Source of the DNA: Candidatus Heimdallarchaeota archaeon
GTDB taxonomy: Archaea; Asgardarchaeota; Heimdallarchaeia; Hodarchaeales; Hodarchaeaceae
Length of the DNA: 64,000 nucleotides
Direction: 5' to 3'
Assembly: GCA_011364965.1 (NCBI GenBank)
Contig: RDOB01000001.1
Coordinates: 160,001 to 224,000, forward strand
The position numbers and the translations under genes were made by a program. The notes beneath the pieces were generated by a model. That model ran no database searches. It was not told the DNA's origin and saw only the letters and a list, made by a program, of their open reading frames with translations. Positions 10,994-58,672 of the stretch are shown piece after piece (within the stretch, counting starts at the first letter, position 1; each line of letters starts with the position of its first letter).

Positions 10994-11125
10994 GGACTCG
11001 TGGCTCAGCATGGATAGAGCATCTGCCTCCGGATTGCATCTTTCTAATAGCAAGGGGACAGTAGAAGGTCGGGGGTTCAAAATCCAAATCTATGAAGGAT
11101 ATGGAGGAAATTCCCCCCGGGTCCG
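10994..11125 (+). tRNA. tRNA-Arg(CCG) with two introns: 37/38 (11033-11059) and T-loop 59/60 (11082-11111)
   Basis: Acceptor GGACTCG/CGGGTCC; BHB at both introns; spliced loops are CTCCGGA and TTCAAAT. Confidence 0.9.
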
Positions 11126-11397
11126 CTGTTCTAAGCAAATACTTCTTGGCAAAGTTTCCTTATATAGAAAGAGAGGTAAATTAAAAATTATTACATGATT
11201 AAATTTCATATATGAACCAATTTGCAAGTATTTAATTTGTCTGTCAAGTTTCATTATCGATAAAGAGATTTATTTAATGTATAAAAAGAAGATATCACTA
11301 TTGTTGTTTGGATTAAGATTTATTCAAGTTGCCAAAACATCAAGCTGCTCATCAGTATACGAAGAAAAGGAAGGGATAATAAGGAGGATTAGGAATA

Positions 11398-11544
11398 TGG
11401 GTTCGGGGGGAATTTCGTCTAGAACCGCAGAGAGTCTAGATTTCGAACCCCCGAGTTTACGTAATCAAGGAATTTCCTTTTTGGCTTCCTTGAATAACTC
11501 GCGCGCCCCAGGCGCGGATCCTAGCCAAGCTAGACCACGAACCC
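11398..11544 (-). tRNA. tRNA-Pro(GGG) with a variable-loop intron (~11456-11497) and a T-loop 59/60 intron (11412-11441)
   Basis: Acceptor GGGTTCG/CGAACCC; anticodon arm CGCGC-CTGGGGC-GCGCG; perfect BHB TTCG-AAA-TCTAGA/TCTAGA-CGAA-ATT; V-loop intron boundary approximate. Confidence 0.88.
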
Positions 11545-11751
11545 CAACATTTTTGTTTGTTATTTCAACAAAATTTATGGATTCTTTTTTAATTTGGGGA
11601 TTGATTCATCCTAATCTCTACTATCACCTAAATCATCTTTTTTTAAAAAGTTGTTCTATTTTCGCTCTCGTGTATTATAAACTAAAGAAATTTGAAAGGA
11701 AATTAAACTCCCAAACATTGACGCATGATTTAATGGAGACGATCAAAAAAG

Positions 11752-12858
11752 TTGGAATTTCAGTCCAAAATATTACCAAAACGAGAGACGTCTGTAAAAA
11801 GCGCCCCTAAAATGCAATCACTAGTATTGCTACCAGTTGGATATCCATTGAGAGCAGGTGAGGAACCCGCACCTTTCTTGACAACAGATGATCCCACTTT
11901 GTTTCAACATTATGCTCGAAGTCAATGGACAGGATTAGTGGTCAGAAAAGGGCATTTCCTTTTCGATTCATTACTATTTCCTGATTATGCTTTTCGTGCA
12001 ATTTCTGTTAATCCAGAGGAATCTCAAATAACAAAAGATACGAAAATTAGTTTATTTTCTGAACAAACAACAGAACCTCCAATACATTCCGCGATTATTG
12101 ATATCAAATTTGAAGATGTTATTGGCCAAAAACAAGCAAAAGAAAAATGTCAGATCATTGCGAAATTTTTGAGTAACTCCGATCTCTTAAACTCTTCTTG
12201 GGCCCCAAAAAACATCCTGTTTTGGGGACCTCCGGGAAATGGGAAAACAATGATGGCTCAAGCATTATCCAACGAAACTTCGCATACAATTCTTCTCGTT
12301 AAGGCAACTGACTTATTAGGCATTTATGTTGGTGATGGTGCAAGAAAGATTAGAAATTTATATGCTGAAGCCCGAAAGGAAGCTCCTTCTCTTGTTTTCA
12401 TTGATGAAATTGATGCTATAGGACTAAAACGTAATTTTCAAAGCATTCGAGGGGATGTGGTAGAGTTGGTCAGTGCACTTCTTGGGGAATTAGATGGTAT
12501 TGATAAGAACCAAGGAGTGGTAACAATTGCGTCAACCAATCAACCTCAAATACTTGACTCGGCTATTTTAAATCGATTTGAGGAATTAATTGAATTTAGA
12601 TTGCCAAATAACAAAGAAAGAAAGCAAATTTTGGAATATTATGCCTCTACATCTCCAATCCCTTTCAATAAGATCGATTGGAATACAATCGTTCAAGAAA
12701 CCCAAGATTGGTCTGCCCGTGCTCTTAAAGAAAAAATCATCAAAAATGCCATTCACCAAGCGGTGTTACATGAAAGAGATAGCATTACAACAGAATTAAT
12801 TTGGGAGTGTTTGAAAAAATCTTCTGAGATTACAGAGGCACTTCCGCACTATTCTTAG
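11752..12858 (+). CDS. AAA+ ATPase (archaeal single-AAA family, COG1223-like)
   Basis: Walker A GPPGNGKT, Walker B FIDEID, WAPKNILF and SRH STN...LDSAILNRF. Confidence 0.88.
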   Translation: MEFQSKILPKRETSVKSAPKMQSLVLLPVGYPLRAGEEPAPFLTTDDPTLFQHYARSQWTGLVVRKGHFLFDSLLFPDYAFRAISVNPEESQITKDTKISLFSEQTTEPPIHSAIIDIKFEDVIGQKQAKEKCQIIAKFLSNSDLLNSSWAPKNILFWGPPGNGKTMMAQALSNETSHTILLVKATDLLGIYVGDGARKIRNLYAEARKEAPSLVFIDEIDAIGLKRNFQSIRGDVVELVSALLGELDGIDKNQGVVTIASTNQPQILDSAILNRFEELIEFRLPNNKERKQILEYYASTSPIPFNKIDWNTIVQETQDWSARALKEKIIKNAIHQAVLHERDSITTELIWECLKKSSEITEALPHYS

Positions 12859-12883
12859 TGGAGTTTAATTAAAGGATTTTAAA

Positions 12884-14011
12884 ATGCCAGAGCTAATGGA
12901 AACATCCCCTCGTTTTTTCTTTTTGCTTTCTGGTGAAAATCCAGAACTAGCGGTTTATGAACTTAACTGTGTAATTTCGATTTTTATAGATAACAAGCAT
13001 CTTAAAATATCGACAAATCAGGATAATAGAATTCTCAATATTACATTTTCAACCGAATTTGATAGAAATGCGATACTAGATAATATTAGATTAATAACAC
13101 ACAGAGTAACAATGGTTCACTTTTGCTGTGAAACATTTTTTACCCAAGAGTTTACAAATACGCCATTGGACTTCAATGAGTTGAAAGAAATTATACCTAA
13201 AGAAGTTTTTTTAAATTTAGATTGTAAAAAATCATTTTCTTTTATCACGAAACGAATTGGAGAACCTGTAGGAATTTTTAAACATAGTTGGGTTTCACCT
13301 AAATTCTCAGAGCATTTAGGTCATCTAGTTCAACAGAACTTTCCATCCAAAAAAGTGAAGCTAGATTCCCCTGAGGAACAATATATAGTTCTGCTGAATC
13401 AGAATGGAATTTGGTGTGGGAAAAAAATTTTCCACTCTTTAAGAGACAAGGTGAGACAAAGAACATCACGTAAAAGACCATTCTTCCATCCTAGTTCCAT
13501 GAATCCGATATTACAACGTACTCTTATAAATCTTAGTGCAATAAAAGAAAAAGAATGGTTATTAGACCCATTTTGTGGATCTGGAGGAGCATTACTAGAA
13601 TCTGCGAGATTAGGTATCAAATCTATTGGAATAGAAATTGATAAGCGAATAATCTGGGGTTCACGTCAAAATCTACAATGTGAAACTGAGAGTTTTCCAC
13701 GGACTCATTTAATTTTTGGGGACGCTAAGAGTCTTCCTATTAAAACTGAATCGATATGTGGAGTAGTCACTGATCCCCCTTATGGTACTGCCTCATCAAC
13801 ACAAGGTTTTGATTTGTCGGACTTACTTATAGCCTTTTTTCAAGAAATATCACAAATTTTAGGTTCAGGAAAACGTATTGTTATTGCAGTTCCTGCAGAA
13901 ATAAATATTGAGAACTTAGCAGCAAATATATTAAACGCGTCATTTAGGGTTTTTTATCAATATGTACACAGATCGTTAACACGTAAAATAATAGTATTTA
14001 TTTTAAATTAA
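12884..14011 (+). CDS. trm11: tRNA m2G10 methyltransferase (THUMP + MTase, Trm11/TrmG10)
   Basis: LLSGENPELA, RPFFHPSSM, LDPFCGSGG, TDPPYG and VHRSLTR. Confidence 0.88.
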   Translation: MPELMETSPRFFFLLSGENPELAVYELNCVISIFIDNKHLKISTNQDNRILNITFSTEFDRNAILDNIRLITHRVTMVHFCCETFFTQEFTNTPLDFNELKEIIPKEVFLNLDCKKSFSFITKRIGEPVGIFKHSWVSPKFSEHLGHLVQQNFPSKKVKLDSPEEQYIVLLNQNGIWCGKKIFHSLRDKVRQRTSRKRPFFHPSSMNPILQRTLINLSAIKEKEWLLDPFCGSGGALLESARLGIKSIGIEIDKRIIWGSRQNLQCETESFPRTHLIFGDAKSLPIKTESICGVVTDPPYGTASSTQGFDLSDLLIAFFQEISQILGSGKRIVIAVPAEINIENLAANILNASFRVFYQYVHRSLTRKIIVFILN

Positions 14012-14330
14012 ATAATATTTCCTCAAGATTTATACTGAAATTTCAACATTCTGTATTTGAGTAATTAAGAATTATATTATCATTTCTGTGAATTGAATTC
14101 TTCATATATCAATAAAGAGATATAATAATTGTGGAAAATTTAATCGCGCAAAAAATATTCACAAAACCTAGTCATTTAAAAGAAAGTGAAGATTGATTTA
14201 AATGATAGGAAAGTAGTGAAAAGTGATCCTGAGTGAGCTGACTTAAATATAAGTAAGCCTACCATGATAATTTGCAAAAAATCCTTCATATCAATATTAA
14301 TATCTTATATTAGTTTGCTGGTATGAACAA

Positions 14331-16238
14331 ATGGAAAAATTATTAACTAAAGCAATTGATGTAGATATGGAATTTGAAACTACGCAAGAAATTCCTATTC
14401 CAAGTCGATTGATTGATCAAGTAATCGGGCAGGAAGAAGCTGTTGAGATAATAAAGAAAGCAGCTATTCAACGCCGAAATGTGTTATTAATAGGTGATCC
14501 TGGAACAGGAAAATCAATGTTAGGACAGGCTCTTGCAGAATTATTGCCCAGGGAAGAGCTAGAAGATATTTTATGTCTCCCTAACCAAAATGATAGTCAT
14601 AATCCCCGAATAATGACTGTTCCGACAATGGAAGGCAGAAAAATTGTTGATCATTACAAACAAATTGCTAGAAAAGCTGATCAACAACGAAATATGCTAT
14701 TATTAGGCATTCCAGCCATTGTTATTATAATTGCTCTGGTTTTAAATCTTGATCTATTATTTGCTATCTTTGTTGCTCTTGTTGCGTTCTTTGTTATTGG
14801 TCAATTCCGTGCAAGACGTGAAAATCTAGTTCCGAAGTTGTTGGTAGATAACTCTGAAAGCGCTAGCGCTCCATTTAGTGATGCTACTGGAGCACATGCA
14901 GGAGCTTTATTAGGAGATGTTCGTCATGATCCTTTTCAATCTGGTGGATTAGGAACACCAGCACACGATCGGGTAGAAGCAGGATTAATTCATAAATCAC
15001 ACAAAGGGGTTCTATATATTGACGAAGTAGCTACATTAAATCAGAAAACGCAGCAACAATTGCTAACTGCTATGCAAGATAAACAACTTGCAATAACTGG
15101 GCGATCCGAACTCTCTAGTGGTGCAATGGTTAGAACTGAAGCTGTACCATGTGACTTTGTTTTAGTGGCTTCGGGTAACATCGATACTGTTCGTCGAATG
15201 CATCCAGCTCTGAGATCACGTATCCGAGGATACGGCTATGAAATCGCTGTGAACCATTCAATGCCTGATATTATGGAGAACAGACGGAAAATTGTTAGAT
15301 TTGTTGCTCAAGAAGTTTCGAAAGATGGAAAGATACCTCATTTTTCAAGAACAGCAGTCCTTGCTGTAATTTTGGAAGCAAAAAAGCGTGCAGACAGAAA
15401 AAATCGACTATCATTATATCTGAGAGATCTAGGGGGTCTTATAAGAGCTGCAGGAGATATTGCACGTGAAGAAGGTGTTCCATTTGTTGAACCGCGCCAC
15501 GTATACGGTGCAAGAAATCTCGCACGATCATTGGAAAATCAAATTGCTGATAAGAATATTGAACATAAAAAAGAATACCAAGTAATTCAAACTGCAGGAG
15601 GTATGGTTGGTCGAGTAAATGGCCTTGCAGTGTTAGCTGATCAAACAGGTGGAGCAAGGGGTGGCCATATCACACCAATTGAAGCCCAGGTTACACCTGC
15701 TCAAGGAGCAGGAGGGAAAGTAATTGCTACAGGAAGTCTCCGAGTTATAGCTAGAGAATCAGTTCAAAATGTTTCAGCACTCATTAAGAAATTTACAGGC
15801 AAAGAAATATCAAAAATGGATGTACATATCCAGTTTTTGGGAACACATGGTATAGATGGAGACAGCGCCAGTGTAACAATAGCAACAGCAATTATGAGTG
15901 ATCTGGTGAATCTACCCGTCAGACAAGACTTAGCAATGACAGGATCATTGTCAGTTAGAGGTGAAGTACTTCCAGTAGGAGGCACAACCGCGAAAATCGA
16001 GGGGGCAGCAGCTGTTGGAATAAAAGATGTAATTATTCCTGCTGCAAACAAAGATGATGTTGTCCTTGATGATAAGGTACGTGAGTCAATTAATATTATA
16101 CCAGTAAAAACCCTCGATGAAGTCTTATCTCTTGCGTTAATTGGCTGGGATAAACGAAAAGAAGTGGCAACATTGTCCTCAACTTCTGTGAAAAAAGATG
16201 TTCCGTCAACTATCCCGAGCTCAGGGTTTCCTACATAA
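14331..16238 (+). CDS. lonB: ATP-dependent protease LonB (membrane anchored)
   Basis: GDPGTGKS, two TM helices inserted in the AAA domain, DPFQSGGLGTP and catalytic DGDSAS...K. Confidence 0.96.
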   Translation: MEKLLTKAIDVDMEFETTQEIPIPSRLIDQVIGQEEAVEIIKKAAIQRRNVLLIGDPGTGKSMLGQALAELLPREELEDILCLPNQNDSHNPRIMTVPTMEGRKIVDHYKQIARKADQQRNMLLLGIPAIVIIIALVLNLDLLFAIFVALVAFFVIGQFRARRENLVPKLLVDNSESASAPFSDATGAHAGALLGDVRHDPFQSGGLGTPAHDRVEAGLIHKSHKGVLYIDEVATLNQKTQQQLLTAMQDKQLAITGRSELSSGAMVRTEAVPCDFVLVASGNIDTVRRMHPALRSRIRGYGYEIAVNHSMPDIMENRRKIVRFVAQEVSKDGKIPHFSRTAVLAVILEAKKRADRKNRLSLYLRDLGGLIRAAGDIAREEGVPFVEPRHVYGARNLARSLENQIADKNIEHKKEYQVIQTAGGMVGRVNGLAVLADQTGGARGGHITPIEAQVTPAQGAGGKVIATGSLRVIARESVQNVSALIKKFTGKEISKMDVHIQFLGTHGIDGDSASVTIATAIMSDLVNLPVRQDLAMTGSLSVRGEVLPVGGTTAKIEGAAAVGIKDVIIPAANKDDVVLDDKVRESINIIPVKTLDEVLSLALIGWDKRKEVATLSSTSVKKDVPSTIPSSGFPT

Positions 16239-16329
16239 TCTTCATCTTTTTTTCGTAAAACACAAAAATGAATTGTGATACTACTTGAATATAGGAAAGA
16301 ACATATAATTCTATCCTTAGAATGAAACA

Positions 16330-16434
16330 GGACCCATGGCTTAGCCTGGATAAAGCGACGGCCTTCTAAGTCGTAGATCGGGGGTTCAAAATCCTGATCC
16401 TTGATGGATTCGGATGAAATTCCCCTTGGGTCCG
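16330..16434 (+). tRNA. tRNA-Arg(TCT) with T-loop 59/60 intron (16391-16420)
   Basis: GGACCCA/TGGGTCC; ACGGC-CTTCTAA-GTCGT; perfect BHB TTCA-AAA-TCC/GGA-TGAA-ATT. Confidence 0.92.
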
Positions 16435-16469
16435 CTTTTTTCAGCGCATTGAAAATATTAAAAGAAATT

Positions 16470-16603
16470 GGACTCGTAGCTCAGCATGGATAGAGCACCT
16501 GCCTCCTAATTGATTGTTTCGATACTCTCAAAGAGCAAGCAGGTGGTCGGGGGTTCAAAATCCTGATCCTTGACGGATTCGGATGAAATTCCCCTCGGGT
16601 CCG
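16470..16603 (+). tRNA. tRNA-Arg(CCT) with 37/38 intron (16509-16537) and T-loop 59/60 intron (16560-16589)
   Basis: GGACTCG/CGGGTCC; CCTGC/GCAGG anticodon stem; BHB motifs; T-tract follows. Confidence 0.92.
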
Positions 16604-16901
16604 CTTTTTTTAAAGCAAATTGTTTGTTAAAGTATCAATTACCAGTTTAAAATCGTTAAAATGGTAAAATTCAGATTAAATTGAGTTGCCAAACTATTTT
16701 TATAATAGGGAGCTAAAATTCCGCGAAAAAACACAATGATCAAATGATCAAAAGGCCTATCACCTTCCTTTCACCAATAATTGTACCTTTAACCATTCAT
16801 TTCTTTTTTGAGAACTTTTTTGTCATATTACGAGAATGATACCTCTTCCTATATTTTTTTGTCGGTTATTTATCACAAGATAAAGAAAGAAGGAAGGTCG
16901 T

Positions 16902-18173
16902 ATGGAATCGATAAAAAACGATATTCTGAACGGAACTGGGTCATTCAAGAATCTGGGGGAATCTAAAAATGAACCTATTTCGTTGTATTCGACATCATCT
17001 CCTAGAATTGATAATGAGATTGCAGATATACTTACTGAAAGACTTCCCCGAGTACAGGTGATTGGTGTGGGAGGTGCTGGTAACAATGCAGTCTATCGTC
17101 TTATGAATACGGAGGTAGACGCTGAATGTGTTGCAGTTAACACAGATGCTCAGCATTTATTATCCACTCGTGCCCATAAAAAGGTATTAATTGGAAAAGA
17201 TACATCTCGCGGTTTTGGAGCAGGAAATAATCCCGAAATAGGTGAGACAGCAGCGAGAGAGTCACTAGATGAGATTAAAAATATGATCCAAGGTAATATG
17301 GTATTTATTACCTGCGGTCTAGGGGGAGGAACTGGAACAGGTGCAGCTCATGTCATCGCAAAGCAAGCAAAAGAAAAAGGAGCTCTCACGGTATCTATTT
17401 GTACTCTTCCTTTTCAAATGGAAGGTGTAAAACGATATGAGAATGCTCGTACTGGTTTGAAAAAACTCTATGAAGCTTCTGATACTGTCATTGTTGTACC
17501 AAATGAAAAGCTCCTCCAAATCTCTGATGATATTACAATGATGGCGGCATTCCGTATTGCTGATGAGGTATTATTACGAGCCGTTAAAGCTATTACAGAG
17601 TTAATTACCAAACCTCAGTTAATCAATCTCGATTTTGCTGATGTGAGGAAGATTTTGACCGAGGGTGGTATGGCTATGATTGGTCTAGGAGAATCAGATC
17701 ATCAACACATGAAGGTTGATGAAGCTGTATTTGAGTCACTTCGAAATCCCCTGCTTGATGATCTGGATATTAGCAGAGCAAAGAAAGGACTAATCTGCGT
17801 CTCTGGAGGCGAAGGGTTAGCTTTAAAAGATGCGGAGGAGGCTGTAATGAAAATAGCAGCTGAAATTGACAACTCAGCAGAAATAATATGGGGAGCTACA
17901 ATTGATCCAGATCTTGGTAATAATATTCGTGTAATAGTTGTCTTGAGCGATGTTCATTCTCCTTTAACAGAGTCGGATGGTCTCTATTATTCTAAAAGTG
18001 ATCTGGAATCACTTCTATCAGATTTAGATTCTCCTTTCTCTGTGATTTCTCCTAAAAAAACTCAAAAACATGAAACAAGAAAGGGTTTTCCTACAGCTCG
18101 GTTTACGATTGAAGAAGAACCTCAAGATCCTGAAAATAAAAAGAATCGAAGAAAGTTTTTTGGATTATTTTAG
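16902..18173 (+). CDS. ftsZ: Cell division GTPase FtsZ
   Basis: GVGGAGNN, NTD, GLGGGTGTG and T7 loop NLDFAD; long C-terminal linker ending RRKFFGLF. Confidence 0.96.
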   Translation: MESIKNDILNGTGSFKNLGESKNEPISLYSTSSPRIDNEIADILTERLPRVQVIGVGGAGNNAVYRLMNTEVDAECVAVNTDAQHLLSTRAHKKVLIGKDTSRGFGAGNNPEIGETAARESLDEIKNMIQGNMVFITCGLGGGTGTGAAHVIAKQAKEKGALTVSICTLPFQMEGVKRYENARTGLKKLYEASDTVIVVPNEKLLQISDDITMMAAFRIADEVLLRAVKAITELITKPQLINLDFADVRKILTEGGMAMIGLGESDHQHMKVDEAVFESLRNPLLDDLDISRAKKGLICVSGGEGLALKDAEEAVMKIAAEIDNSAEIIWGATIDPDLGNNIRVIVVLSDVHSPLTESDGLYYSKSDLESLLSDLDSPFSVISPKKTQKHETRKGFPTARFTIEEEPQDPENKKNRRKFFGLF

Positions 18174-18198
18174 TATGAGCCTTTTCTTCCTTCTTTCT

Positions 18199-18852
18199 TC
18201 ATTCTAATCCTATTTTTTTAGCTAATGTATCCATTCCCTCACCTGTTTTTGTGCTAGTAGGTATTATTGGCAGCTGGGGGTATAATTCATTAGCCCCAAA
18301 TATGATGGAGTTGACGTTAATTTCCATGATTGATGCGAGGTCAATTTTATTTAAAACTGCCAAGTTACCCATCTTAAAAGTTATTGGGTGTTTTCTAAAA
18401 ACATAGGGCCCTTCAGTCACACTTGTAACAACTAATTTGATACCAGCTCCCACATCTGTTGAGGAAGGACAGATTAAATTTCCTACGTTTTCCACAAATA
18501 TGAAATTAAAATCATTCAGATCGACCGATTTAAGCGCAGTTTCAATTTGAAAAGCAAACAAATGACACCCACGACCTGTATTGATTTGTATACAAGTACT
18601 TCCAAATTGACTAATTCTTTGCGCATCAATATCTGTTGCCAAATCTCCATTAATTACAAGTAATTTTCGAGTATTTTCATATTTCTTTGAAAAATATTCA
18701 AGAATAGACGTTTTCCCAGATCCAACGCTCCCCATTATATCAACCATTGGTATGTTATACTCTTTAAGTTTACTCCGAATGCGTTCGGCAATTTGATCGT
18801 TAGCTTCGGATATCTTCTTATCTATATCAATTCTTAAAACCATAAAACTCAA
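18199..18852 (-). CDS. hypB: Hydrogenase nickel incorporation GTPase HypB
   Basis: GSVGSGKT, NTGRGCHL, ENVGNLICP and NKID. Confidence 0.93.
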   Translation of the reverse strand: MSFMVLRIDIDKKISEANDQIAERIRSKLKEYNIPMVDIMGSVGSGKTSILEYFSKKYENTRKLLVINGDLATDIDAQRISQFGSTCIQINTGRGCHLFAFQIETALKSVDLNDFNFIFVENVGNLICPSSTDVGAGIKLVVTSVTEGPYVFRKHPITFKMGNLAVLNKIDLASIMEINVNSIIFGANELYPQLPIIPTSTKTGEGMDTLAKKIGLE

Positions 18853-18986
18853 TTCCCGGAATTAAGTTATTTAACCGCTATTACTATCATATATTTCATA
18901 GATTGCCAGAAGTTATTAATCCTTCTTTTCTATGAGAGTAACAAAGGTTTTTTAAATTACTATTAGGAGCCTTTGATTGGTTTCTA

Positions 18987-19355
18987 ATGCATGAATTTTC
19001 CTTAGCGCAATCAGTTTTTGATACAATTGTTTCTATTGCTGAAAAACAAAACGTAAAAATGATTAAAAAAGTGATCTTAAAATTTGGTATGTTTGCTCTT
19101 GTTCAAGAAGATCAGTTTAAATTTTGTTTTGATATTGTGAAAAAGGATTCCGAAAAAACTCAAAATACAATTCTTGAGATCAAATGGATTCCAGGTGTTC
19201 TTAGATGTTTAGATTGTCAATTTGAGGGGGAAATAAAAAAAGTCCCACAAGACCATATTGAATTAGCTCCCATTTTTAAGTGTCCAAATTGCGATAGCTT
19301 TTCCACCGAGGTATTGTCCGGAACAGAAACTATTATTGATTCTCTATTAGTTTGA
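18987..19355 (+). CDS. hypA: Hydrogenase maturation nickel metallochaperone HypA
   Basis: MHEFSLA N-terminus; CxxC...CPNC. Confidence 0.93.
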   Translation: MHEFSLAQSVFDTIVSIAEKQNVKMIKKVILKFGMFALVQEDQFKFCFDIVKKDSEKTQNTILEIKWIPGVLRCLDCQFEGEIKKVPQDHIELAPIFKCPNCDSFSTEVLSGTETIIDSLLV

Positions 19356-19382
19356 AACAAAAATCTGTAATATTTAATTTAG

Positions 19383-19868
19383 TTACCTTACCACGCAATC
19401 AATACGATTGTTCCTTGGGATAAGTGTGCAATGAAAAGCTAAAGAAGATTCATTTGAAAAGACCTCAATATTTTCTCCGTCCCATTGAACCCTAATTATC
19501 TGTCCAATAAATGTATTCTGCTGAACTCTTGGTTCCCCTTGCATAATAATGGCTGAATTGCTTTGTTGATTAACTAAAACGACATTATTTTGGTTTTGTA
19601 TATCCACTATTCGGCCATCAAGAGGATGGGATTCCTCCCTGATCTCAAATCCCTCTGGAATCCATTTAACACGAGTTCGAACACCAACATTTTGCAGTTG
19701 CTGGAATGCAATAATCCGTACTCCAGATAATATGAATCCAACTTTTTGAGTTCTCTTGTTAAAATCTGCACTTTTATATCCAGATACCTGAAATCCTACA
19801 TTATTTTTAGGAGTATCTGGATTCCATAAACACGAAAGACTTTGTACGATTATTTTCTTAGGAGACAA
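19383..19868 (-). CDS. Hypothetical beta-rich protein
   Basis: 161-aa ORF; GAGGA SD before the TTG; no recognised motif. Confidence 0.6.
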   Translation of the reverse strand: MSPKKIIVQSLSCLWNPDTPKNNVGFQVSGYKSADFNKRTQKVGFILSGVRIIAFQQLQNVGVRTRVKWIPEGFEIREESHPLDGRIVDIQNQNNVVLVNQQSNSAIIMQGEPRVQQNTFIGQIIRVQWDGENIEVFSNESSLAFHCTLIPRNNRIDCVVR

Positions 19869-19992
19869 AAATATTTCCTCAATATGACTCTAGTAAAGCA
19901 ATAAGAATGGATTCTTTGATATTTTCAAATGCTATTATCATTTAAATGATTTTATTTTTCAATTATGACAATCAGAATACGGTAGGCTCATT

Positions 19993-20059
19993 AGAGAGAG
20001 GTCAGTGAAAACAGTAAAATTAACAGTATCAGGCGAAACTGATCATCCTTTATCTCTCT
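19993..20059 (-). ncRNA. Candidate box C/D-like sRNA
   Basis: AGAGAG..AGGAUGA-10nt-CUGA...CUGA-CCUCUCUCU with complementary ends; C' box not recognisable. Confidence 0.3.
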
Positions 20060-30860: not shown

Positions 30861-30974
30861 TGCGCCGACCGGGATTTTCAGTTGAAAGGATAACTGAAAG
30901 TAAAACCCTTCACCATTTGAACCCGAGTTACCAGCTTGGGAGGCTGGAGTCTTACCAGACTGGACCATCGGCGC
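30861..30974 (-). tRNA. tRNA-Gly(CCC) with a 41-nt T-loop 59/60 intron (30875-30915)
   Basis: GCGCCGA/TCGGCGC; CCAGC-CTCCCAA-GCTGG; BHB TTCA-AAT/TGAA-AAT. Confidence 0.9.
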
Positions 30975-31831: not shown

Positions 31832-31897
31832 ATGCCTCAGACCGCTCATCGATCATCAAATCTAGTTTCAGTTACCTAAAGGTATCATCATTGGCAT
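31832..31897 (-). ncRNA. Box C/D guide sRNA (compact archaeal type)
   Basis: AUGCC stem, C AUGAUGA, 13-nt guide, D' CUGA, C' UGAUGA, 12-nt guide, D CUGA, GGCAU. Confidence 0.85.
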
Positions 31898-48947: not shown

Positions 48948-49020
48948 TTTTTTATTTTCCCCCTTTTTTTATTTCATTCCGTTTTTTAGGTTATTATAAA
49001 TTCCTGAATTCGTATATATA

Positions 49021-49725: not shown

Positions 49726-51695
49726 TCTATTCCATCTGCATGTAAAGAAGTGATATCAGAAAATGATATTTGTTTTAAAGTAAATTGCCTTTCAATTATT
49801 TTGAGGGCATCCATTAAAGGTAGATTTTCTTCAATCCATATAAAATTAAGAAAATAACGAGCTAGATTACTTGGATTCAAGCTCTCACTATAGGGAATAC
49901 CTAATGCGAGAGAAACTCGTTTTTGAAATCTACTAATATATTGAGGGGAGGATTTTCGTCCAATCTCACGAATGATATCTTCTGGTTGTTTAAATGTCCC
50001 AAGAATGTAAAAATTTCCTCCAATTACCGTGAATCCATAGATAATTCCTGTTTCTTCATCCTGTGTAATGAATTTCTTCCCTAATAAATACCTAAAAGTT
50101 TCTGGTACAGAATGAAAATAAACACCGATTTTTGCATGAACTTCATCTGAGAGGAATATAAATGCTGAAGTAGGGAGAACACAGTAGTAAGAAGTAAGAA
50201 TTTCGTGAGGTGAGACCAGTAAGCGTTCAATGTTATTTAATAACCAGAGATTTTCTGGAGAAAATGCGTTTCCCTCTCCAATATTTAACTTCTTTGCAAT
50301 AGAAAAACGAAGATCAGCTAGATTCTGCTTTGCTAATCCTTCAAGAAATATATCGAGTAAATAAGAAGGAGGAACAGGTCGTTTGATGATGATTGCTTGG
50401 CCATAGGGAGAAGCATTAATTAAACCCGCGATACGCCCAAAATTCGATCCTGCCATTCCTTTAATTTGGTTTCCGATAATTGATTCATTGGTTTTAGCCC
50501 TTCCTGCAGCTGGAATCCAAGCAGGAATTTTTAACACCTCTAGAGCTTCATTGTTAACAATAGATCGTTCTAAAGATGGATTTTTAAACTTTTTATCTTC
50601 CAGAAACCATGCTTTTGTTAAATTTGGTTTAATTGGGCTAGCTTCAACTCCAGATTGCGTCAGCCACTGGTTAAATATTGAAGGGATCAAAGATATCTTT
50701 TCAGGTATATTTAATGCCTGACTAATAATTGCAGTCAATTCTTGGGTTGTGATAGACTTCAAGTCAATAGAAATCCTTCTTAATGAGTCGTAATACTTTT
50801 TTTTCAATATAGATATGTCCAAAGGAGCCTCTTGAACAATGGGTATGTAAATTCGGTCATCTATTCTCACTGGGGGTCGAAATAATCCAAGTGGGATTCC
50901 TTCAATATCAAAAGCTACTCTACCTACAAAATCCCATAAATCTACAGCTATTTGTTCACTTATTTGATCTTCAACAGAAGGACAAGACGGGGGAATGAGA
51001 TCTTTAGATTCCTCTATATCTTGAATGGGGGTCGAAATAATAGATGATACTCCTTGTTGCAAACTAAAAGGCTTTATCATCTCTTCTAAATCAAAAATTT
51101 TGTCAGATTCATCTTTTATAGGAATTTTTAATGATTCAAGGATTTCTAGCTCAACTTCGTTAAGAATTTCTGTATCCAAGGCTAAGTCGTTTTTATAAAA
51201 ACTCTTAAGTGAATAATCTTGCCATATTCTGGCAAATTCACTAAATAAACTCTTCAGAGATGCAAATTCATGCTCAGAACTAATTTGATTTATGAAATCT
51301 TCAATATCTATACTATTTTCTTTTTCGATATTACTTAATCGTTTTAATTTTAAATTCAATCGGTAATTTAACTGGTTCTGCTTCAACGAGTAGAATTCTT
51401 TTTTTCTGACATAATTACTGATGATCTCTTTAGCTCGTTCACGATCTAAATTCCCAGTTTCCCATTCTTTGACACTTTTCTTGATTCTTGTTTCAGTTTC
51501 ATGAATTAATAATTTTTTAGATTGGATCTCTTTGTTTATAAAAACAACTCCAAATATATCAATAAATGGAACTCTCTCCATTTTCTTTTGAACATCACTT
51601 GTCTTAAGATCATCCAAAAATTGAATTAAAGTACTTTCATTTAGGATTCCAGTATCTCGGAGATCTATTAGGATTTTACGTAGATCATTCATCAA
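49704..51695 (-). CDS. Hypothetical protein: N-terminal helical region plus three PRC-barrel-like repeats
   Basis: FVGRVAFDIEGIPLG, IIGNQIKGMAGSNFGRI and LLGKKFITQDEETGII, each followed by a similar helical insert. Confidence 0.7.
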   Translation of the reverse strand: MMNDLRKILIDLRDTGILNESTLIQFLDDLKTSDVQKKMERVPFIDIFGVVFINKEIQSKKLLIHETETRIKKSVKEWETGNLDRERAKEIISNYVRKKEFYSLKQNQLNYRLNLKLKRLSNIEKENSIDIEDFINQISSEHEFASLKSLFSEFARIWQDYSLKSFYKNDLALDTEILNEVELEILESLKIPIKDESDKIFDLEEMIKPFSLQQGVSSIISTPIQDIEESKDLIPPSCPSVEDQISEQIAVDLWDFVGRVAFDIEGIPLGLFRPPVRIDDRIYIPIVQEAPLDISILKKKYYDSLRRISIDLKSITTQELTAIISQALNIPEKISLIPSIFNQWLTQSGVEASPIKPNLTKAWFLEDKKFKNPSLERSIVNNEALEVLKIPAWIPAAGRAKTNESIIGNQIKGMAGSNFGRIAGLINASPYGQAIIIKRPVPPSYLLDIFLEGLAKQNLADLRFSIAKKLNIGEGNAFSPENLWLLNNIERLLVSPHEILTSYYCVLPTSAFIFLSDEVHAKIGVYFHSVPETFRYLLGKKFITQDEETGIIYGFTVIGGNFYILGTFKQPEDIIREIGRKSSPQYISRFQKRVSLALGIPYSESLNPSNLARYFLNFIWIEENLPLMDALKIIERQFTLKQISFSDITSLHADGIECTLQNG

Positions 51696-51855
51696 TTTTA
51701 ATTCCGGAGCTTTCCTTCATAAAACAATCTGGTAAATACTTCAACTAGTCTCATAAATCACTTTGCTATTGAGAAAATAGACGAGGAAACGCGACGCACC
51801 TAGTTTATCTTTAATGATTTTATCCGATTAAATCTTCAGTTATTACGAATTTATT

Positions 51856-52872
51856 TTATTGAGACTCATTAGACTTAGAACCTAGGTTTTCTGGAACTGT
51901 GAACTCAAATGGAGGTTTTGTAGTTACAATTACTCCCTTTTCCTCGGTTATTATGAATGTGTGCTCATGCTGAGCAACATAACTTCCTTTTTCATCAGCT
52001 AAAGGAGGATAAGCTATCGCGCCGCCTCCATTTAGTAGCTGACGAAGTGTAAACCGAACTCGTGATTGATTGAATCCGTCAAATGATGTAAGATGTCTTT
52101 CAGCAAAAGGTAAAGATTTGTATCTTTGGTATGTTGTAGAGTAGATTTTCCTAGATACTGGATTTCGGATTGCAATCCGCCTCGGAAGTAGCATATAGAT
52201 GAATTTAGACCCAGATACTTCATGGACGCTGCCTGTTCCTGTAGAAGCGAATGTTTCCAACGCAAAAGCCTCTCCCACCTGCAAATCACCCTCAGCGGGA
52301 TCATATGGGACACTTATGTTCGGTAAACGCTTATCTCCATGTAATTCGTACCTACCAAGCTTATGTCCAGTTAACTCTCGTATTGGTCTATAATCATAAC
52401 TAAGAATGGTTTCTTCGATTTGTTTTCCTATAACAGATGGGAGTGTACCTGCTTGTATGATCTCCATTCCAGAACGGAATCCCTCTTCCGCAGCTTTGAC
52501 CAGGTTCTTATAGGTATTAGAGAGAGGGATGGATACAGCTGTGTCTGCAATGTATCCATTTACATGAACACCAATATCCAATTTTACTATACCATCGTTT
52601 GGTATAACGCTTTGATCTCCATATGGACTTGAATAATGAGCAGCAATATTATCAATCGAGACATTTGTAGGAAAACCTAAACCATCGGCCCCTTTTTCCA
52701 AAATCAGATTCTCTGCTGTTTCGCACACATTAATAATTGGGATATTGGGCTTAATCATTGATTTTACTTCATCCAAAACTTCGTATGCAATCTTGCCAGC
52801 CTTCTGATAGTAATAAATCTTTTCCTCTTCTGTTATTCCCTCTTCAGATGTCCAATCACTCACGAGATTCAC
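51856..52872 (-). CDS. map: Methionine aminopeptidase type II
   Basis: FPTNVS...AAHY, KLDIGVHVNGYIADTA, LTGH, ETFAS and QHEHT. Confidence 0.96.
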   Translation of the reverse strand: MNLVSDWTSEEGITEEEKIYYYQKAGKIAYEVLDEVKSMIKPNIPIINVCETAENLILEKGADGLGFPTNVSIDNIAAHYSSPYGDQSVIPNDGIVKLDIGVHVNGYIADTAVSIPLSNTYKNLVKAAEEGFRSGMEIIQAGTLPSVIGKQIEETILSYDYRPIRELTGHKLGRYELHGDKRLPNISVPYDPAEGDLQVGEAFALETFASTGTGSVHEVSGSKFIYMLLPRRIAIRNPVSRKIYSTTYQRYKSLPFAERHLTSFDGFNQSRVRFTLRQLLNGGGAIAYPPLADEKGSYVAQHEHTFIITEEKGVIVTTKPPFEFTVPENLGSKSNESQ

Positions 52873-53021
52873 CTAAATCCATTTTAAATATATAAATACA
52901 ACTAATTAGTTTCATTAGAAAATTTTTTTTATCCTAGACTTTTTTATTAATCTTAACTTGATCCTTAATTCGGAAATCCTACAAACAATTTTTAATGATA
53001 TGAGTTTCAGAGGTTCACCAC

Positions 53022-54287
53022 TTGAACAATGAAAATATAGTATTAGAACTTGAAGAATTATTAAAAAGGCAATATATTCTATCATCAGAGAGAGCAGTTG
53101 AATTTATTAACTTTTGTGACCTTTTGGGAGAGAAAATTCATTCTATCGATGAAGAAAAAAAAGATTTTTATCTTTATATTATTCAACATCTTCGGTTATT
53201 CTTTAATTCGGAATTTATGTACCATAGCAATTTAGTTGAAAAAGCACTTAAATCTTACCAGAAAATGAAGGAAAATTTGTCCATTACACAAACGGAATTC
53301 CCTGATCTTTATGCAACTTGGCAATATGATATTGATCGATTAATATACAGGACTGAGGCGCGAATCCAAGAGCTTAAAGCACAATTCGCAGTAATTCAAG
53401 AGGATTATATCCAAGCTGATGTTTTATTTGTTGAAACTCTAAATAGATATAATGTTGAATTAGAATTTGAACAAAAAAATGAAGACTACGAACACTACTT
53501 TGACTCATTGGCACATATTTTCTATAATACTGGATTACTCTATAGAATACGAGGAAAAACAACAAAAAATCAAGCTGATTTATACCAAGCTTTGAAAAAT
53601 TTGAGGAAAGCGGAATTTCTTGGTAAAACAGGATTTTCAGCATTAATTGACGAAATTAAAGAGGAAAAGTTTTCATTTACTCAGATAAAACTAGAAAATC
53701 AAGCAGATACTTTTTTTACGAAAGGATTAACTGAATCAGAAATGGAGAATTATAATATAGCTAAGAACATGTATCAGAAATCTGCTCAAATTTATCGATC
53801 CTTAAATCATCTAAAACCTGCGTTTGAATATGAACTTCAAGAACAGATCCAAATTTCCTCATATTATGAAGCTACGGCAAAGAATTATATGATTCAAGAC
53901 ATGAATGAAGAAGCGGCAAAACAATTCTCTAACGCAAGTCAAATTCTACAGCAATTGCTAACGAAACTCAATAATGAAGTTTTATCACTACAATTTGCTC
54001 CACAAATTAAATATTTTGATGCTATGGAATTATTTTGCCAGGCAGTTACAGAATATGACAAATTAGATACAAAAGCTGCAGAACATTTCGATTTGGCCCA
54101 AAAAATGTTAAATAGGGCTAAACTGGAATCAGATGAGCAGAATAATCAACCTCTTGCAAAAAGCTGTACTGATGCATTGGCTAGATTGAACTCTTATCAA
54201 GAGATTGTTGAGCTTATGCTTTCACCGTCTCAAATTGATAGAGAAGAGACTTTAGATGAATTTAAGGAAAATCTAGAAGAAGAATAA
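53022..54287 (+). CDS. TPR-like helical repeat protein
   Basis: Repeated A...Y/F..A helical hairpins. Confidence 0.75.
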   Translation: MNNENIVLELEELLKRQYILSSERAVEFINFCDLLGEKIHSIDEEKKDFYLYIIQHLRLFFNSEFMYHSNLVEKALKSYQKMKENLSITQTEFPDLYATWQYDIDRLIYRTEARIQELKAQFAVIQEDYIQADVLFVETLNRYNVELEFEQKNEDYEHYFDSLAHIFYNTGLLYRIRGKTTKNQADLYQALKNLRKAEFLGKTGFSALIDEIKEEKFSFTQIKLENQADTFFTKGLTESEMENYNIAKNMYQKSAQIYRSLNHLKPAFEYELQEQIQISSYYEATAKNYMIQDMNEEAAKQFSNASQILQQLLTKLNNEVLSLQFAPQIKYFDAMELFCQAVTEYDKLDTKAAEHFDLAQKMLNRAKLESDEQNNQPLAKSCTDALARLNSYQEIVELMLSPSQIDREETLDEFKENLEEE

Positions 54288-54298
54288 GCTTTATTTCC

Positions 54299-54622
54299 TT
54301 ATTCGCTAGATAGTTGTAATTGTTCTAGGATTACATAAGCCTCAAGCAATGATATGCCCAGGTCTTGAGCTAATTCCTCTGGAGCGATATTTGGATTCGA
54401 AGGAAGTATTTTTTGACGGGTCCAAGCAAGATTTGAAGCAAAACCAGGTATCCGCGTCATAAGAGGATCAAGTAACTCAATTATTTGTTCTTTTGATAAT
54501 TGATTCAGTATTGGAGCAGATCCACTTCGATTGATAATTTTAGGGAGCTTTTTCACGTCTCTTGAACTTTTTCCTTCACTATTTGCTTTTTTTTGTGATA
54601 AGAAATGATTCAAGTCTGACAT
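54299..54622 (-). CDS. Hypothetical protein with C-terminal HTH
   Basis: NPNIAPEELAQDLGISLLEAYVIL. Confidence 0.65.
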   Translation of the reverse strand: MSDLNHFLSQKKANSEGKSSRDVKKLPKIINRSGSAPILNQLSKEQIIELLDPLMTRIPGFASNLAWTRQKILPSNPNIAPEELAQDLGISLLEAYVILEQLQLSSE

Positions 54623-55100
54623 CTTTTCTCTTAACCTGGTATAAGCTGGGATCTGAATTATAAAACTTTATGTATATGATAATTTTTGTCCAATAAAGGC
54701 AATTTAATATTTAAGTCCTCGGTTTGGACGCTGATAACTCCTTGAGTTCTCTCGGGCTAAGGGAAGCATGATTTATACTTTTTCGAGATACTTATTGAGG
54801 GGATACAAATAATATGAACTCATTATAAAAACCGTGAATGAATTCCATGGTTAGATCCATTCAATAGATCTGTAGTTAGTGGACATAGATTTGTAGAGGC
54901 AAATGAAACTCCATAAGATTAGCAAAACATTTTCTTTTGTAAAAAAAGGAAGAAATTGTCCTTTCAAGCACAAAAGAGGTTACCATGTGAACATCTAGCC
55001 TTAAAAAATTTAACTTACCATTTTAATAGTAATATTTTTATATATAGAGGCAGATCCCCTTTTTCCGACCAAAAAAACTATTAGAGGTTTATACAACAAA

Positions 55101-55412
55101 ATGGGTGAAACTTGCCGTACTTGCGGATTGCCACTAGAATTATGCGCATGCGAAGATATTTCTCGAGAAGAAACCACTTCAATCCGAGTTTTTATCGAAA
55201 AACGTAAATGGGGTCGGGAAGTAACAATTATCGATGGATTAAGCAAGGATATTGATCTAAAAAGTCTTGCTAAACATCTTAAAAAGAGTTTAGCTACTGG
55301 CGGGACTTTAAAAGAAGGAAGAATTGAGCTTCAGGGAAATTTTATGCGCCTAGTTGCTCCTATCTTAATAAATGAGGGTTTTCCAGAATCCTCTATTGAG
55401 CTTCGTGAATAA
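55101..55412 (+). CDS. Translation initiation factor aIF1/SUI1 (YciH)
   Basis: CRTCGLP.ELCAC, GREVTIIDG, LKK.LATGGT and IELQG. Confidence 0.94.
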   Translation: MGETCRTCGLPLELCACEDISREETTSIRVFIEKRKWGREVTIIDGLSKDIDLKSLAKHLKKSLATGGTLKEGRIELQGNFMRLVAPILINEGFPESSIELRE

Positions 55413-55753
55413 ACCGCAACTTCAATCTGTTTACATATCGCATTTATCAGATAGATAAATGCTACCATCTTTTTTTTTGGTAAATGGGGATGTAACAATG
55501 AATGTAAACTTTTAAGATTCCAGAGTCTATTAAGAATGCGTTTCTACTTCGTAAAGCTAAAAACTAGTCCGTTTGCAACCTTTTGATAATTGGAGGTCGC
55601 TTTTTCAAAAGAATTCGATGACCACAGATAATGCATCTGATACCCGGTAGGGTTTCTAACTCTGCTGGATCAATTTCTTGATGGCACTTTTGACATAAAT
55701 AGGTAGTCATTTTCTCATCCTACGTTCTAAAATTTGTGAGGAGGATAACTCAC

Positions 55754-56158
55754 TCAGATCGGTCGCTTGAGGTTTTGTTTGATATAATTTACGATCTCAT
55801 CTGTATCTGTCCCTGGACCAAAAATCCCTTCTATTCCGATCGCACTCAAACTTTCATAATCCTGATCTGGGATAATTCCACCTGCAATAATCAATGTATC
55901 CTCAAACATATCTTTTTCTTTTAACAGCTCAACAATTCGCGGAAACAAGGCCATATGAGACCCACTTAAGCTTGATAAGCCAATCACATCAGCATCCTCC
56001 TGTAAAGCCGCTTCAACAATCTGCTCGGGGCTTTTATGGAGCCCTGTGTAAATCACTTCCATACCCGCATCTCGCAGTGCTCTCGCAACAACCTTTACAC
56101 CACGATCATGACCATCAAGGCCTGGTTTTGCTAATAATACTCTAATTTTTGGTCCCAT
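55754..56158 (-). CDS. B12-binding small subunit of an acyl-CoA mutase
   Basis: [10 protein letters not shown] (DxHxxG) and GLSSLSGSH. Confidence 0.94.
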
Positions 56159-56173
56159 TTCATCACATTCCTA

Positions 56174-57853
56174 TTAAAATAATTGATCACCTTTCCATTC
56201 CCCAAAAACTTCTCGTAATACATCGCAAATCTCGCCAATTGAGGCATACAACTTCACTGCTTCTATAATTGGAGGCATCAAATTATCTGTTCCCTCTGCA
56301 GCTTTTTTAATTTTATCCAAAGCAGATTTTACTGCAACATTATCTCTTTCTTCTTTTACCTGATTCAAACGTCTGATCTGACGATCTGCAACTTCATCAC
56401 TAATATAAAGAATTGGGATTTCTATCTTCTCATCCTTTTGAAAATCATTGACACCTACTATTATACGCTCTTTTTCTTCAATTTCTTTTTGGTACCGATA
56501 AGCTGCATTAGAAATTTCAGTTTGAAAGAATCCTTTTTCAATTGCAGGTATCACTCCACCAAGCTGCTCGATTTTGTGGAAATATTCCTCCGCTTCTTTT
56601 TCCATTTCGGAGGTTAACCTTTCAATAAAGTAACTCCCACCCAAAGGGTCGATTGTATTTGTAACTCCACTTTCGTGAGCAAGTAATTGCTGAGTTCGGA
56701 GAGCAATTTCCACTGCCTCCTCGCTTGGCAACGCTAGTGCTTCATCTAACGAATTTGTATGAAGTGATTGAGTACCTCCCAATACAGCAGCTAGAGCTTG
56801 AATAGTTGTCCTAACAACATTTAAGTATGGTTGCTGTGCAGTTAAAGAGCAACCAGCTGTTTGTGTATGAAACCTTAGCCATAAAGATTGTTGATTTTTG
56901 GGATTGTATTGCTTAATAAACTTTGCCCAGATTCGTCGAGCTGCACGATATTTGCAGATTTCCTCGAAAAAATCGTTATGTGAATTAAAGAAAAAGGAGA
57001 GACGAGGAGCAAATTCATCAATGTCCATTCCTGCCTCAACTGCCCATCTGACATATTCCATTCCATCAGCTAGTGTAAAAGCAAGCTCTTGTGCAGCAGT
57101 GGACCCAGCTTCGCGAATGTGATATCCAGAAATTGAAATTGTATTCCATCTCGGGACATGTGTTGAACAATATTTCATAATATCCACAATAATGCGCATA
57201 GAAGGAGTAGGAGGGAAAATATACGATTTTTGAGCAATATATTCCTTTAAAATATCATTTTGAATAGTTCCTCCAATTTTGTCGGAACTTACTCCTTGTT
57301 TTTCAGCTACAGTAATATACATTGCTAGAAGAATAGCAGCAGGAGCGTTGATTGTCATTGAAGTTGTGACTTTATCTAATGGGATACCATCAAATAATAT
57401 TTCCATGTCTTTAAGTGTATCAATTGCTACTCCCAGTTTCCCCACTTCACCTAAAGACATAAGATGGGTTGATTCACGCCCATATATTGTAGGAAGGTGA
57501 AACGCAACACTTAAACCAGTCATCCCGTTTTCTAGTAGAAATTTAAATCTTTGATTGGTCTCCTCCGCACTTCCAAATCCAGCAAATTGCCGCATCGTCC
57601 ATAACCGCCCACGATACATCGATTGCTGAACTCCCCGAGTGAAGGGATATCGACCTGGATAACCGAGATCCTCTTGATACGACCAGTCTTCTGGAATATC
57701 GGTTGGGTCATATAGATTTTGAATCTCCTTGCTTGATGTAGTCATGAATTTCTTTAATCGCTCAGGATGCCTATTTACTCTTTGGTTATAAGATGATTCC
57801 CATTTTTCTCTTAATTCTTCGATATTTACCAATTTTATTGACTCTTTAGTCAT
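56174..57853 (-). CDS. Acyl-CoA mutase large subunit, isobutyryl-CoA mutase-like
   Basis: [19 protein letters not shown] and [11 protein letters not shown]; specificity residues MRQF and YIAQK. Confidence 0.92.
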
Positions 57854-57885
57854 AAATCTTTACTCTCCAATCGAATTCCAAACCA

Positions 57886-58440
57886 TTAAAACTCAATACC
57901 TTTCCGTGCAAGAATACCTGATTGAAATGGATGCTTAGGAGTTGAAATTTCAGTGTAGTAATCAGCAAGTTCGATTAGTGCTGGTGAAGCATAACGGCCA
58001 GTCAATAATACTTCAAGTTTCTTAGGTTTTTGTTGGAGGAAGGAAAGGACTTCCTCTTCAGAAATCAATCCAAAATTAAGAGCAACGTTGATCTCATCTA
58101 AAACAAGGATATCCCAATCTTCTTCTGACATTACCTTTCTAGCATAAGCCAAGGCAGCTCTAGCTTCTTGAAAATCAATATCTTTAGGATTATTTTTATC
58201 AACAAATTCAGGAGTGCCAAATTGAATGATAGAAATTAAAGGGATTTGGTTAATACTGACCAGTTCACCATAATCCCAACCTTTCTTCATAAATTGAATG
58301 ATCAAAGTTCTGAAACCATGCCCTGATGCTCTCAGAGCTAATCCAAGTGCTGAAGTGGTTTTTCCTTTGCCATTGCCCGATATAACATGTATTAAACCGT
58401 GATTAGATTTTCCATCTTTATGATTGAGTGTCTTGGTCAT
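57886..58440 (-). CDS. cobO: Cob(I)alamin adenosyltransferase (CobO/BtuR)
   Basis: GNGKGKTTSALG, IQFMK, LDEIN, LTGR and KHPF..G..ARKGIEF. Confidence 0.94.
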   Translation of the reverse strand: MTKTLNHKDGKSNHGLIHVISGNGKGKTTSALGLALRASGHGFRTLIIQFMKKGWDYGELVSINQIPLISIIQFGTPEFVDKNNPKDIDFQEARAALAYARKVMSEEDWDILVLDEINVALNFGLISEEEVLSFLQQKPKKLEVLLTGRYASPALIELADYYTEISTPKHPFQSGILARKGIEF

Positions 58441-58571
58441 TTTAATCCCAATCCAAACCAATTAAATCGAAAATTAAAATTAAGTAAAGAAGTTTATGAG
58501 GAAGACCCCCTGTGCTAGTTAGTAAACAAAAACCATATAAAAATAGCATTTGTCTTTTAAATTGAAGCTCA

Positions 58572-58672
58572 GGCCGGTGTAGGATAAATTCAGACCCAAT
58601 AAGAGCTGAAATCAAACGGTAGTCTCGGCGGTTGTGGCCCGCCATGTCGGGGTTCGATTCCCCGCTCCGGCC
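58572..58672 (+). tRNA. tRNA-His(GTG) with D-loop intron (15/16; 58588-58616) and encoded G-1
   Basis: GGCGG-TTGTGGC-CCGCC; T arm CGGGG-TTCGATT-CCCCG; G-1/C73; relaxed BHB GGAT-AAA-TTCAG/CTGAA-ATCA-AAC. Confidence 0.88.

Follow-up and report, generated by a model that had tools for sequence, protein, structure and literature searches.

The DNA analyzed here, which we call the window, is a 64,000-nucleotide (nt) stretch of contig RDOB01000001.1 from Candidatus Heimdallarchaeota archaeon (assembly GCA_011364965.1, positions 160,001 to 224,000 of the forward strand), and it contains six tRNA genes. An initial annotation, made from the sequence alone, had proposed that every tRNA gene in the window is interrupted, that nine introns are present, and that most of them lie at noncanonical positions. 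We searched the window with a cloverleaf finder that requires all four stems and allows an insertion of 10 to 130 nt in any loop. Genes for Arg-CCG, Pro-GGG, Arg-TCT, Arg-CCT, Gly-CCC, and His-GTG were found, with scores of 55 to 58; the best unrelated candidate in the window scored 44, and the maximum in the reversed whole genome, used as the null, was 45. All six genes carry insertions. Because no seventh tRNA gene was detected in the window by this search, with loop insertions allowed, the proposal that every tRNA gene is interrupted stands. The counts, positions, and lengths of the nine introns were also reproduced: five lie in the T-loop at position 59/60 (four of 30 nt and one of 41 nt), two at position 37/38 (27 and 29 nt), one in the variable loop at position 45/46 (42 nt), and one in the D-loop (29 nt). 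Seven of the nine are outside 37/38, in agreement with the annotation of bulge-helix-bulge (BHB)-type introns at mostly noncanonical sites.

Two of the genes lie close together on opposite strands. tRNA-Arg(CCG), on the plus strand at 10994 to 11125 (cloverleaf score 55), has a 27-nt intron at 37/38 (11033 to 11059), whose motif comprises a central helix paired at all four positions, an outer helix of 5 bp, and an inner helix of 4 bp, and a 30-nt intron at 59/60 (11082 to 11111), where the TTCA/GGAA central helix is paired at three of four positions (one A.G mismatch) between outer and inner helices of 5 and 4 bp. tRNA-Pro(GGG), on the minus strand at 11398 to 11544 (score 56), has the 42-nt variable-loop intron at 11456 to 11497, with a relaxed BHB motif and the least certain junction of the set, and a 30-nt T-loop intron at 11412 to 11441 (TTCG/CGAA, central helix 4/4, outer 5 bp, inner 6 bp). 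A plus-strand pair follows. tRNA-Arg(TCT) at 16330 to 16434 (score 57) has one intron, of 30 nt in the T-loop (16391 to 16420; TTCA/TGAA, central helix 4/4, outer 5 bp, inner 3 bp). tRNA-Arg(CCT) at 16470 to 16603 (score 56) has a 29-nt intron at 37/38 (16509 to 16537; central helix 3/4, outer 7 bp, inner 4 bp) and a 30-nt T-loop intron (16560 to 16589). The single intron of tRNA-Gly(CCC), a minus-strand gene at 30861 to 30974 (score 58), is the 41-nt T-loop intron at 30875 to 30915 (TTCA/TGAA, paired at all four central positions, with an outer helix of 5 bp and an inner helix of 9 bp that includes one G.A mismatch). Finally, tRNA-His(GTG), with G-1, at 58572 to 58672 on the plus strand (score 58; 34.9 bits with the Rfam tRNA model) has the 29-nt D-loop intron at approximately position 15/16 (58588 to 58616), with a relaxed HBh'-type motif (central helix 3/4, no outer helix, inner 5 bp). 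In silico splicing of the six genes yields products of 72 to 75 nt (75 nt for Arg-CCG and Pro-GGG, 73 nt for Gly-CCC), each of which ARAGORN accepts at default settings with the expected anticodon. The exons have a GC content of 57 to 69%, and the introns 31 to 43%.

In reading the motifs, we placed the cut after the second base of each bulge. The initial annotation held that in the T-loop introns the exonic sequence TTCR pairs with NGAA of the intron, with a 3-nt bulge on each side, and that cleavage after the second bulge base restores TTCRAAT; both statements proved true of all five T-loop introns, with TTCR corresponding to tRNA positions 54 to 57. A strict hBHBh' motif is seen in four introns, namely that of Arg-CCG at 37/38 and those in the T-loops of Pro-GGG, Arg-TCT, and Arg-CCT. 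In three others a single central-helix pair is mismatched, in one the inner helix contains a mismatch, and the Pro-GGG variable-loop intron is relaxed. At the Pro-GGG T-loop, the minimum-energy fold of the precursor contains the complete motif. We considered whether the introns could be box C/D guides and, judging by eye only, set this aside since 27 to 42 nt is too short.

Standard tRNA finders were expected to miss or miscall these genes, and ARAGORN and the Rfam tRNA model indeed fail on five of the six. In the unspliced window, ARAGORN made two calls, Arg-TCT at 16335 to 16404 and His at 58605 to 58673, both with wrong ends and one beginning inside an intron; allowing introns in the anticodon loop brought no gain in the window. 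The Rfam tRNA model scored above threshold in the window for His only, with a 34-nt unaligned insert, and across the whole genome it matched Arg-TCT, Arg-CCT, and Gly-CCC below threshold only and gave no match to Arg-CCG or Pro-GGG. A scan for strict BHB motifs combined with ARAGORN found single-intron genes but missed those with several introns or relaxed motifs, and it was replaced by the cloverleaf finder; a scan for GC islands was discarded as too unspecific. Because generic tools miss or miscall five of the six genes, codon-usage and completeness estimates will be wrong for metagenome-assembled genomes (MAGs) of this kind.

The genome is a 16-contig MAG that is 87% complete, with 3% estimated contamination. 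A genome-wide search for interrupted tRNA genes, recommended by the initial annotation in a BHB-aware form, was carried out with the cloverleaf finder, ARAGORN, and Infernal. This census recovered about 44 tRNA genes, which represent 44 of the 46 anticodon classes expected, with tRNA-Gln alone missing; each anticodon is present once except for the three expected CAT genes. About 28 of the 44 genes are interrupted and 16 are intact. The introns number about 45, most of them noncanonical, and 14 are at 59/60, where their lengths are 29 to 33 nt plus the single 41-nt case. Many genes have more than one intron, including Glu-TTC, Phe-GAA, Trp, and Pro-TGG, which were recovered by the census. Each of the six window genes is the sole gene found for its anticodon. 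Intron-less copies supplying these anticodons, which the initial annotation had named as the finding that would speak against it, were not found in the genome-wide census.

To place the host, we compared the protein LonB, whose gene adjoins the Arg genes. It shares 78 to 86% identity with its counterparts in MAGs of Hodarchaeota and Heimdallarchaeota; the nearest LonB loci are in MAGs named Hodarchaeota, Heimdallarchaeota, Hodarchaeum mangrovi, and Promethearchaeota, B3_Heim included. These nearest matches identify the host as a Hodarchaeales-type Asgard archaeon, consistent with the Asgard lineage proposed initially. The synteny of the tRNA-Arg cluster is shared as well.

Orthologues from about 20 species of the host's GTDB genus were then compared gene by gene. 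For Arg-TCT, 17 congeners have no intron (6), a D-loop intron (10), or a variable-loop intron (1), and the 59/60 intron is found solely in the host. The 37/38 intron of Arg-CCT is present in 17 of 17 congeneric orthologues, and its 59/60 intron occurs in the host and four congeners with differing sequences. Among the 20 congeneric orthologues of Pro-GGG compared, the 59/60 intron is shared by the host and seven others and the variable-loop intron by the host and two others; 11 have none. The 29-nt D-loop intron of His-GTG is present in the host and eight congeners and absent from five. Gly-CCC has the 59/60 intron in all 12 genes detected, with a length of 29 to 32 nt in the 11 congeners, where the central helix is invariant and the inner helix covaries. 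More generally, the central helix of the T-loop introns is paired at four of four positions in 20 of the 20 orthologous introns examined, and the inner helix varies in sequence while staying largely paired, with two or three pair types per position. A constant central helix with paired turnover of the inner helix is the signature of selection for splice structure.

Intron-less congeneric orthologues exist for Arg-TCT, Pro-GGG, His-GTG, and Ser-GCT, and the junctions are therefore fixed independently of the motif. The point at which the contig of a relative with an intron-less Arg-TCT diverges from the window, 16390/16391, is precisely the predicted 5' splice site. Within the host genus, introns at these positions appear and disappear from one species to the next, and the presence of intron-less and intron-bearing orthologues side by side in about 20 congeneric species makes their gain and loss directly traceable. 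Rapid turnover at a single gene was also seen outside the window: tRNA-Ser(GCT) (genome contig C12, 353416 to 353527; locus L121) has a 59/60 intron that is found in 0 of 18 congeners, whose Ser-GCT genes have D-loop, anticodon-loop, or variable-arm introns or none.

These comparisons bear on two alternative explanations. Since the genome is a MAG in 16 contigs with some estimated contamination, the insertions might be artifacts of assembly or binning. Identical intron-containing DNA was assembled in independent estuary, marine-sediment, and mangrove metagenomes, however, and contigs from the runs of several studies cover the genes and introns with 0 to 1 differences; orthologues in many other assemblies have introns at the same positions. 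We regard an artifact as extremely improbable. Among the DNA metagenome contigs matching the window, none contained a joint that skips an intron. The second alternative, that the genes are decaying pseudogenes and the insertions unremoved junk, could draw on the rejection of most of the genes by standard finders. Against it, each gene is the only one found for its anticodon, the exons are intact and match the orthologues base for base around the insertions, the insertions fall exactly at BHB sites whose motif is kept through sequence turnover, and the spliced products are perfect cloverleaves. We consider decay very unlikely.

The initial annotation had suggested determining which type of splicing endonuclease, EndA, the host has. 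The genome encodes a two-subunit EndA, as two paralogues outside the window on a single contig, C13. The alpha paralogue retains the Tyr-His-Lys catalytic triad, and its best alignments are with the catalytic alpha subunits from A. pernix, S. tokodaii, and P. aerophilum. No gap interrupts the alignment across the crenarchaeal-type specificity loop, where a Lys occupies each of the sites corresponding to K44 and R46 in A. pernix. The beta paralogue (C13, approximately 105.2 to 105.9 kb) is without the catalytic His and resembles structural subunits. A gene for the ligase RtcB is present on contig C9. The specificity loop has been shown experimentally to confer cleavage of D-loop introns and introns with relaxed motifs (PMC3241643), and an alpha-beta enzyme with this loop agrees with the assignment by Kaneta et al. 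(2018) of an (alpha-beta)2 EndA with an L1 loop to Asgard archaea (PMC5829648). With such an EndA and RtcB, the host machinery is predicted to be able to cut noncanonical and relaxed sites and to ligate the products. The frame encoding the alpha paralogue (L116, 1207 to 1782; C13, approximately 73.9 to 74.4 kb) contains 192 open codons, with a match to the N-terminal domain from close to its start, and the first ATG, GTG, or TTG lies 35 codons in; the frame may therefore have an unusual start codon or contain a sequence error.

We interpret the window as containing six functional archaeal tRNA genes with nine protein-spliced BHB introns, a reading to which we assign a probability of approximately 0.9. 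Each gene would be transcribed as a precursor in which the flanking exon pairs with the 3' portion of the intron in a 4-bp helix flanked by two 3-nt bulges. In the 59/60 introns, the exon side of this helix would be T-loop bases 54 to 57, stacked on the T-stem. A heterotetrameric EndA, composed of catalytic alpha subunits with the specificity loop and structural beta subunits, would cut after the second base of each bulge, and RtcB would then ligate the exons and probably circularize the intron.

Several points weigh against this interpretation. Cleavage and ligation are what we infer from the genes, insertions, motifs, conservation, and enzymes observed. With the genome 87% complete, an unassembled intron-less copy is possible. 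In minimum-energy folds of the AU-rich TTCA/TGAA introns, the outer and inner helices form and the central helix is open. The motifs of the Pro-GGG variable-loop and His-GTG D-loop introns are relaxed, with central helices of 3/4 and outer helices of 0 to 1 bp. In addition, the 3' strand of the anticodon stem forms part of the central helix of the Pro-GGG variable-loop intron, whose junction could therefore be one base off and whose splicing may require a particular order.

The last two introns raise the possibility that they are handled differently from the other seven. EndA might splice the seven well-formed introns while the D-loop and variable-loop introns are removed via other junctions, by ordered splicing after refolding, or by another nuclease. 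The lack of an outer helix in the His-GTG motif, the imperfect central helices of both, and the competition of the Pro-GGG central helix with the anticodon stem would fit this scenario, as would the finding of an October 2026 preprint that, of the insertions that annotation misses, only 33% in the D-arm and 21% in the variable region form canonical motifs (bioRxiv 10.64898/2026.10.13.758758). However, D-loop BHB introns, as well as relaxed motifs that lack one bulge, are cleaved by EndA enzymes with a specificity loop (PMC3241643; PMC3239211), and the lengths of both introns are fixed by orthologues. The D-loop of intron-less His-GTG orthologues is 7 nt long (AACGGTA or AATGGTA), which sets the intron at 29 nt; our initial hand reading of 27 nt was replaced on this comparison. 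The best register for this intron is identical in the window and in all eight congeners with the 29-nt insertion, and its inner helix covaries. In Pro-GGG orthologues the variable loop is 5 nt long (for example, AGCTC or AGATC), and this length sets the intron at 42 nt. The best automated reading, a 44-nt intron cut inside the anticodon stem, was rejected, as it would shorten the variable loop to 3 nt and break the 27-43 pair. The register adopted, with the cut between AG and CTC, was derived by hand and is absent from the automated scan list, its length alone being set by the orthologues; in this register three of the four central positions pair, both bulges of 3 nt are present, and one mismatch is followed by a long inner helix. 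On balance, separate handling of these two introns appears improbable, if less so than decay of the genes, and we favor splicing of all nine introns by EndA.

The similarity of some T-loop introns suggested that they might have spread between genes. The T-loop introns of Arg-TCT and Arg-CCT are identical at 29 of 30 positions and lie in identical T-arms, and the 5' parts of these tandem genes are only about 70% identical (by eye). Near-identical introns next to diverged 5' parts therefore suggest a short gene-conversion tract, as far as can be judged from the two sequences. Beyond this pair, the intron core of Ser-GCT is 0.78 identical to that of Arg-TCT, and the core of Arg-CCG reaches 0.70 to 0.74, compared with a maximum of 0.74 among shuffled sequences. 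All four genes share the T-arm GGGGG/TTCAAAT/CCCC, and Ser-GCT is on a different contig from the Arg genes. The 59/60 introns of Arg-TCT and Ser-GCT occur in 0 of 17 to 18 congeners and were gained only in the host lineage. A genome search for free-standing or further copies of the intron found none. We tentatively propose, at somewhat less than even odds, that an approximately 30-nt T-loop intron was recently copied among Arg-CCT, Arg-TCT, Arg-CCG, and Ser-GCT; if so, it would have spread by reverse splicing or by gene conversion directed by the T-arm. Such copying would give a concrete instance of an intron spreading inside an Asgard genome, something judged almost absent from Asgard archaea by the 2026 census, in which cross-gene intron families at at least 80% identity make up 1.5% in the focal lineages (bioRxiv 10.64898/2026.10.13.758758).

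The Arg-CCG gene may have a history of its own. Its mature sequence is identical to the host's Arg-CCT at 67 of 75 positions and to the Arg-CCG of congeners at only 56 of 75. The congeners' Arg-CCG has a GGGCCC-type acceptor stem and is third in the LonB-linked Arg cluster; a gene of this ancestral type is absent from the host genome, and none of the congeners compared has a tRNA gene next to Pro-GGG. By these sequence comparisons, the host Arg-CCG looks like a relocated copy of Arg-CCT with a changed anticodon.

Other features of the genome were noted during the census. Nearly all of the tRNA genes are clustered on contigs C12 (190 to 410 kb) and C13, and no credible tRNA gene was found in the whole-genome census on contigs C11 (632 kb), C14, and C15. 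The same census found no gene for tRNA-Gln, which may be hidden, split, or unassembled; gaps in tRNA gene content could in general reflect hidden, split, or permuted genes or missing sequence. A probable tRNA-Tyr(GTA) gene on the minus strand of contig C6 (5328 to 5488) has 95 nt between the two strands of its anticodon stem, and this stretch repeats a 10-nt segment spanning the 3' strand of the D-stem and the 5' strand of the anticodon stem. The repeat therefore suggests two putative introns, one just before position 32 and a second at 37/38. Within the window, the intergenic gap at 31835 to 31895 contains, on the minus strand, an archaeal box C/D small RNA of textbook form (C, ATGATGA; D', CTGA; C', TGATGA; D, CTGA) with a short terminal stem, for which the Rfam snoRNA matches are weak and below threshold.

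The Hodarchaeales belong to the archaea that have been placed nearest to eukaryotes, whose tRNA splicing system, TSEN, is restricted to position 37/38. Because of this placement, the splicing load and enzyme type of Hodarchaeales bear on the origin of TSEN, and the locus described here, with six genes and nine introns, offers a well-resolved case.

The initial annotation regarded the phenomenon as undescribed, which is not correct. Valentin-Alvarado et al. (2024) reported that 92 to 95% of tRNA genes contain introns in Atabeyarchaeia and Freyarchaeia and that, in three complete Asgard genomes, over half of the intron-containing tRNA genes have several introns, many of them noncanonical (PMC11291895). 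The preprint cited above, a census of 90 Asgard genomes, found insertions at BHB motifs, frequent gains on terminal branches, and approximately 30% of insertions missed by annotators in three focal families (bioRxiv 10.64898/2026.10.13.758758). Positions 59/60 and 45/46 are listed among the known noncanonical intron sites (PMC4090602). Our literature search found no paper joining Hodarchaeales with tRNA introns, so the remaining gap is an explicit description of this lineage, the general phenomenon being already published.

The window genes and these published Asgard sets have much in common: an Asgard host, one to three short and mostly noncanonical introns in many tRNA genes, prominent T-arm and D-arm sites, BHB motifs, failing annotation, a two-subunit EndA, and gains on terminal branches. 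The host differs in belonging to the Hodarchaeales/Heimdallarchaeia side, which is unnamed in the main text of the preprint, and in having a 59/60 hotspot of approximately 30-nt introns, some of them related in sequence across genes. It also differs in intron load. About 64% of its tRNA genes are interrupted, at about 1.0 intron per gene, compared with 92 to 98% and about 2.2 in the focal families; the non-focal Asgard families average 0.91, and 2.2 is the extreme (bioRxiv 10.64898/2026.10.13.758758). The massive intron invasion postulated initially was therefore an overstatement, as the host is near the non-focal average and not at the extreme.

Similar introns are known from two other archaeal groups. 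The Thermoproteales (Sugahara 2008; Fujishima 2010; PMC4090602) likewise have 45/46, 59/60, and D-loop introns along with those at 37/38, up to three per gene, an (alpha-beta)2 EndA with a specificity loop, and similar introns in different tRNA genes of one genome. In contrast to them, the host belongs to another phylum, is a mesophilic sediment organism with a 35% GC genome, and shows evidence of copying in one small family rather than dozens. The micrarchaeon ARMAN-2 (Fujishima 2011, PMC3239211) shares 59/60 introns with the host, in pre-tRNA-Cys and pre-tRNA-Pro(GGG), and its 59/60 intron was cleaved in vitro for tRNA-Cys. The ARMAN-2 enzyme is of the epsilon2 type with another loop, and the intron tested was 13 nt long with a relaxed hBH motif; the host combines 59/60 introns of approximately 30 nt and full hBHBh' motifs with an alpha-beta enzyme.

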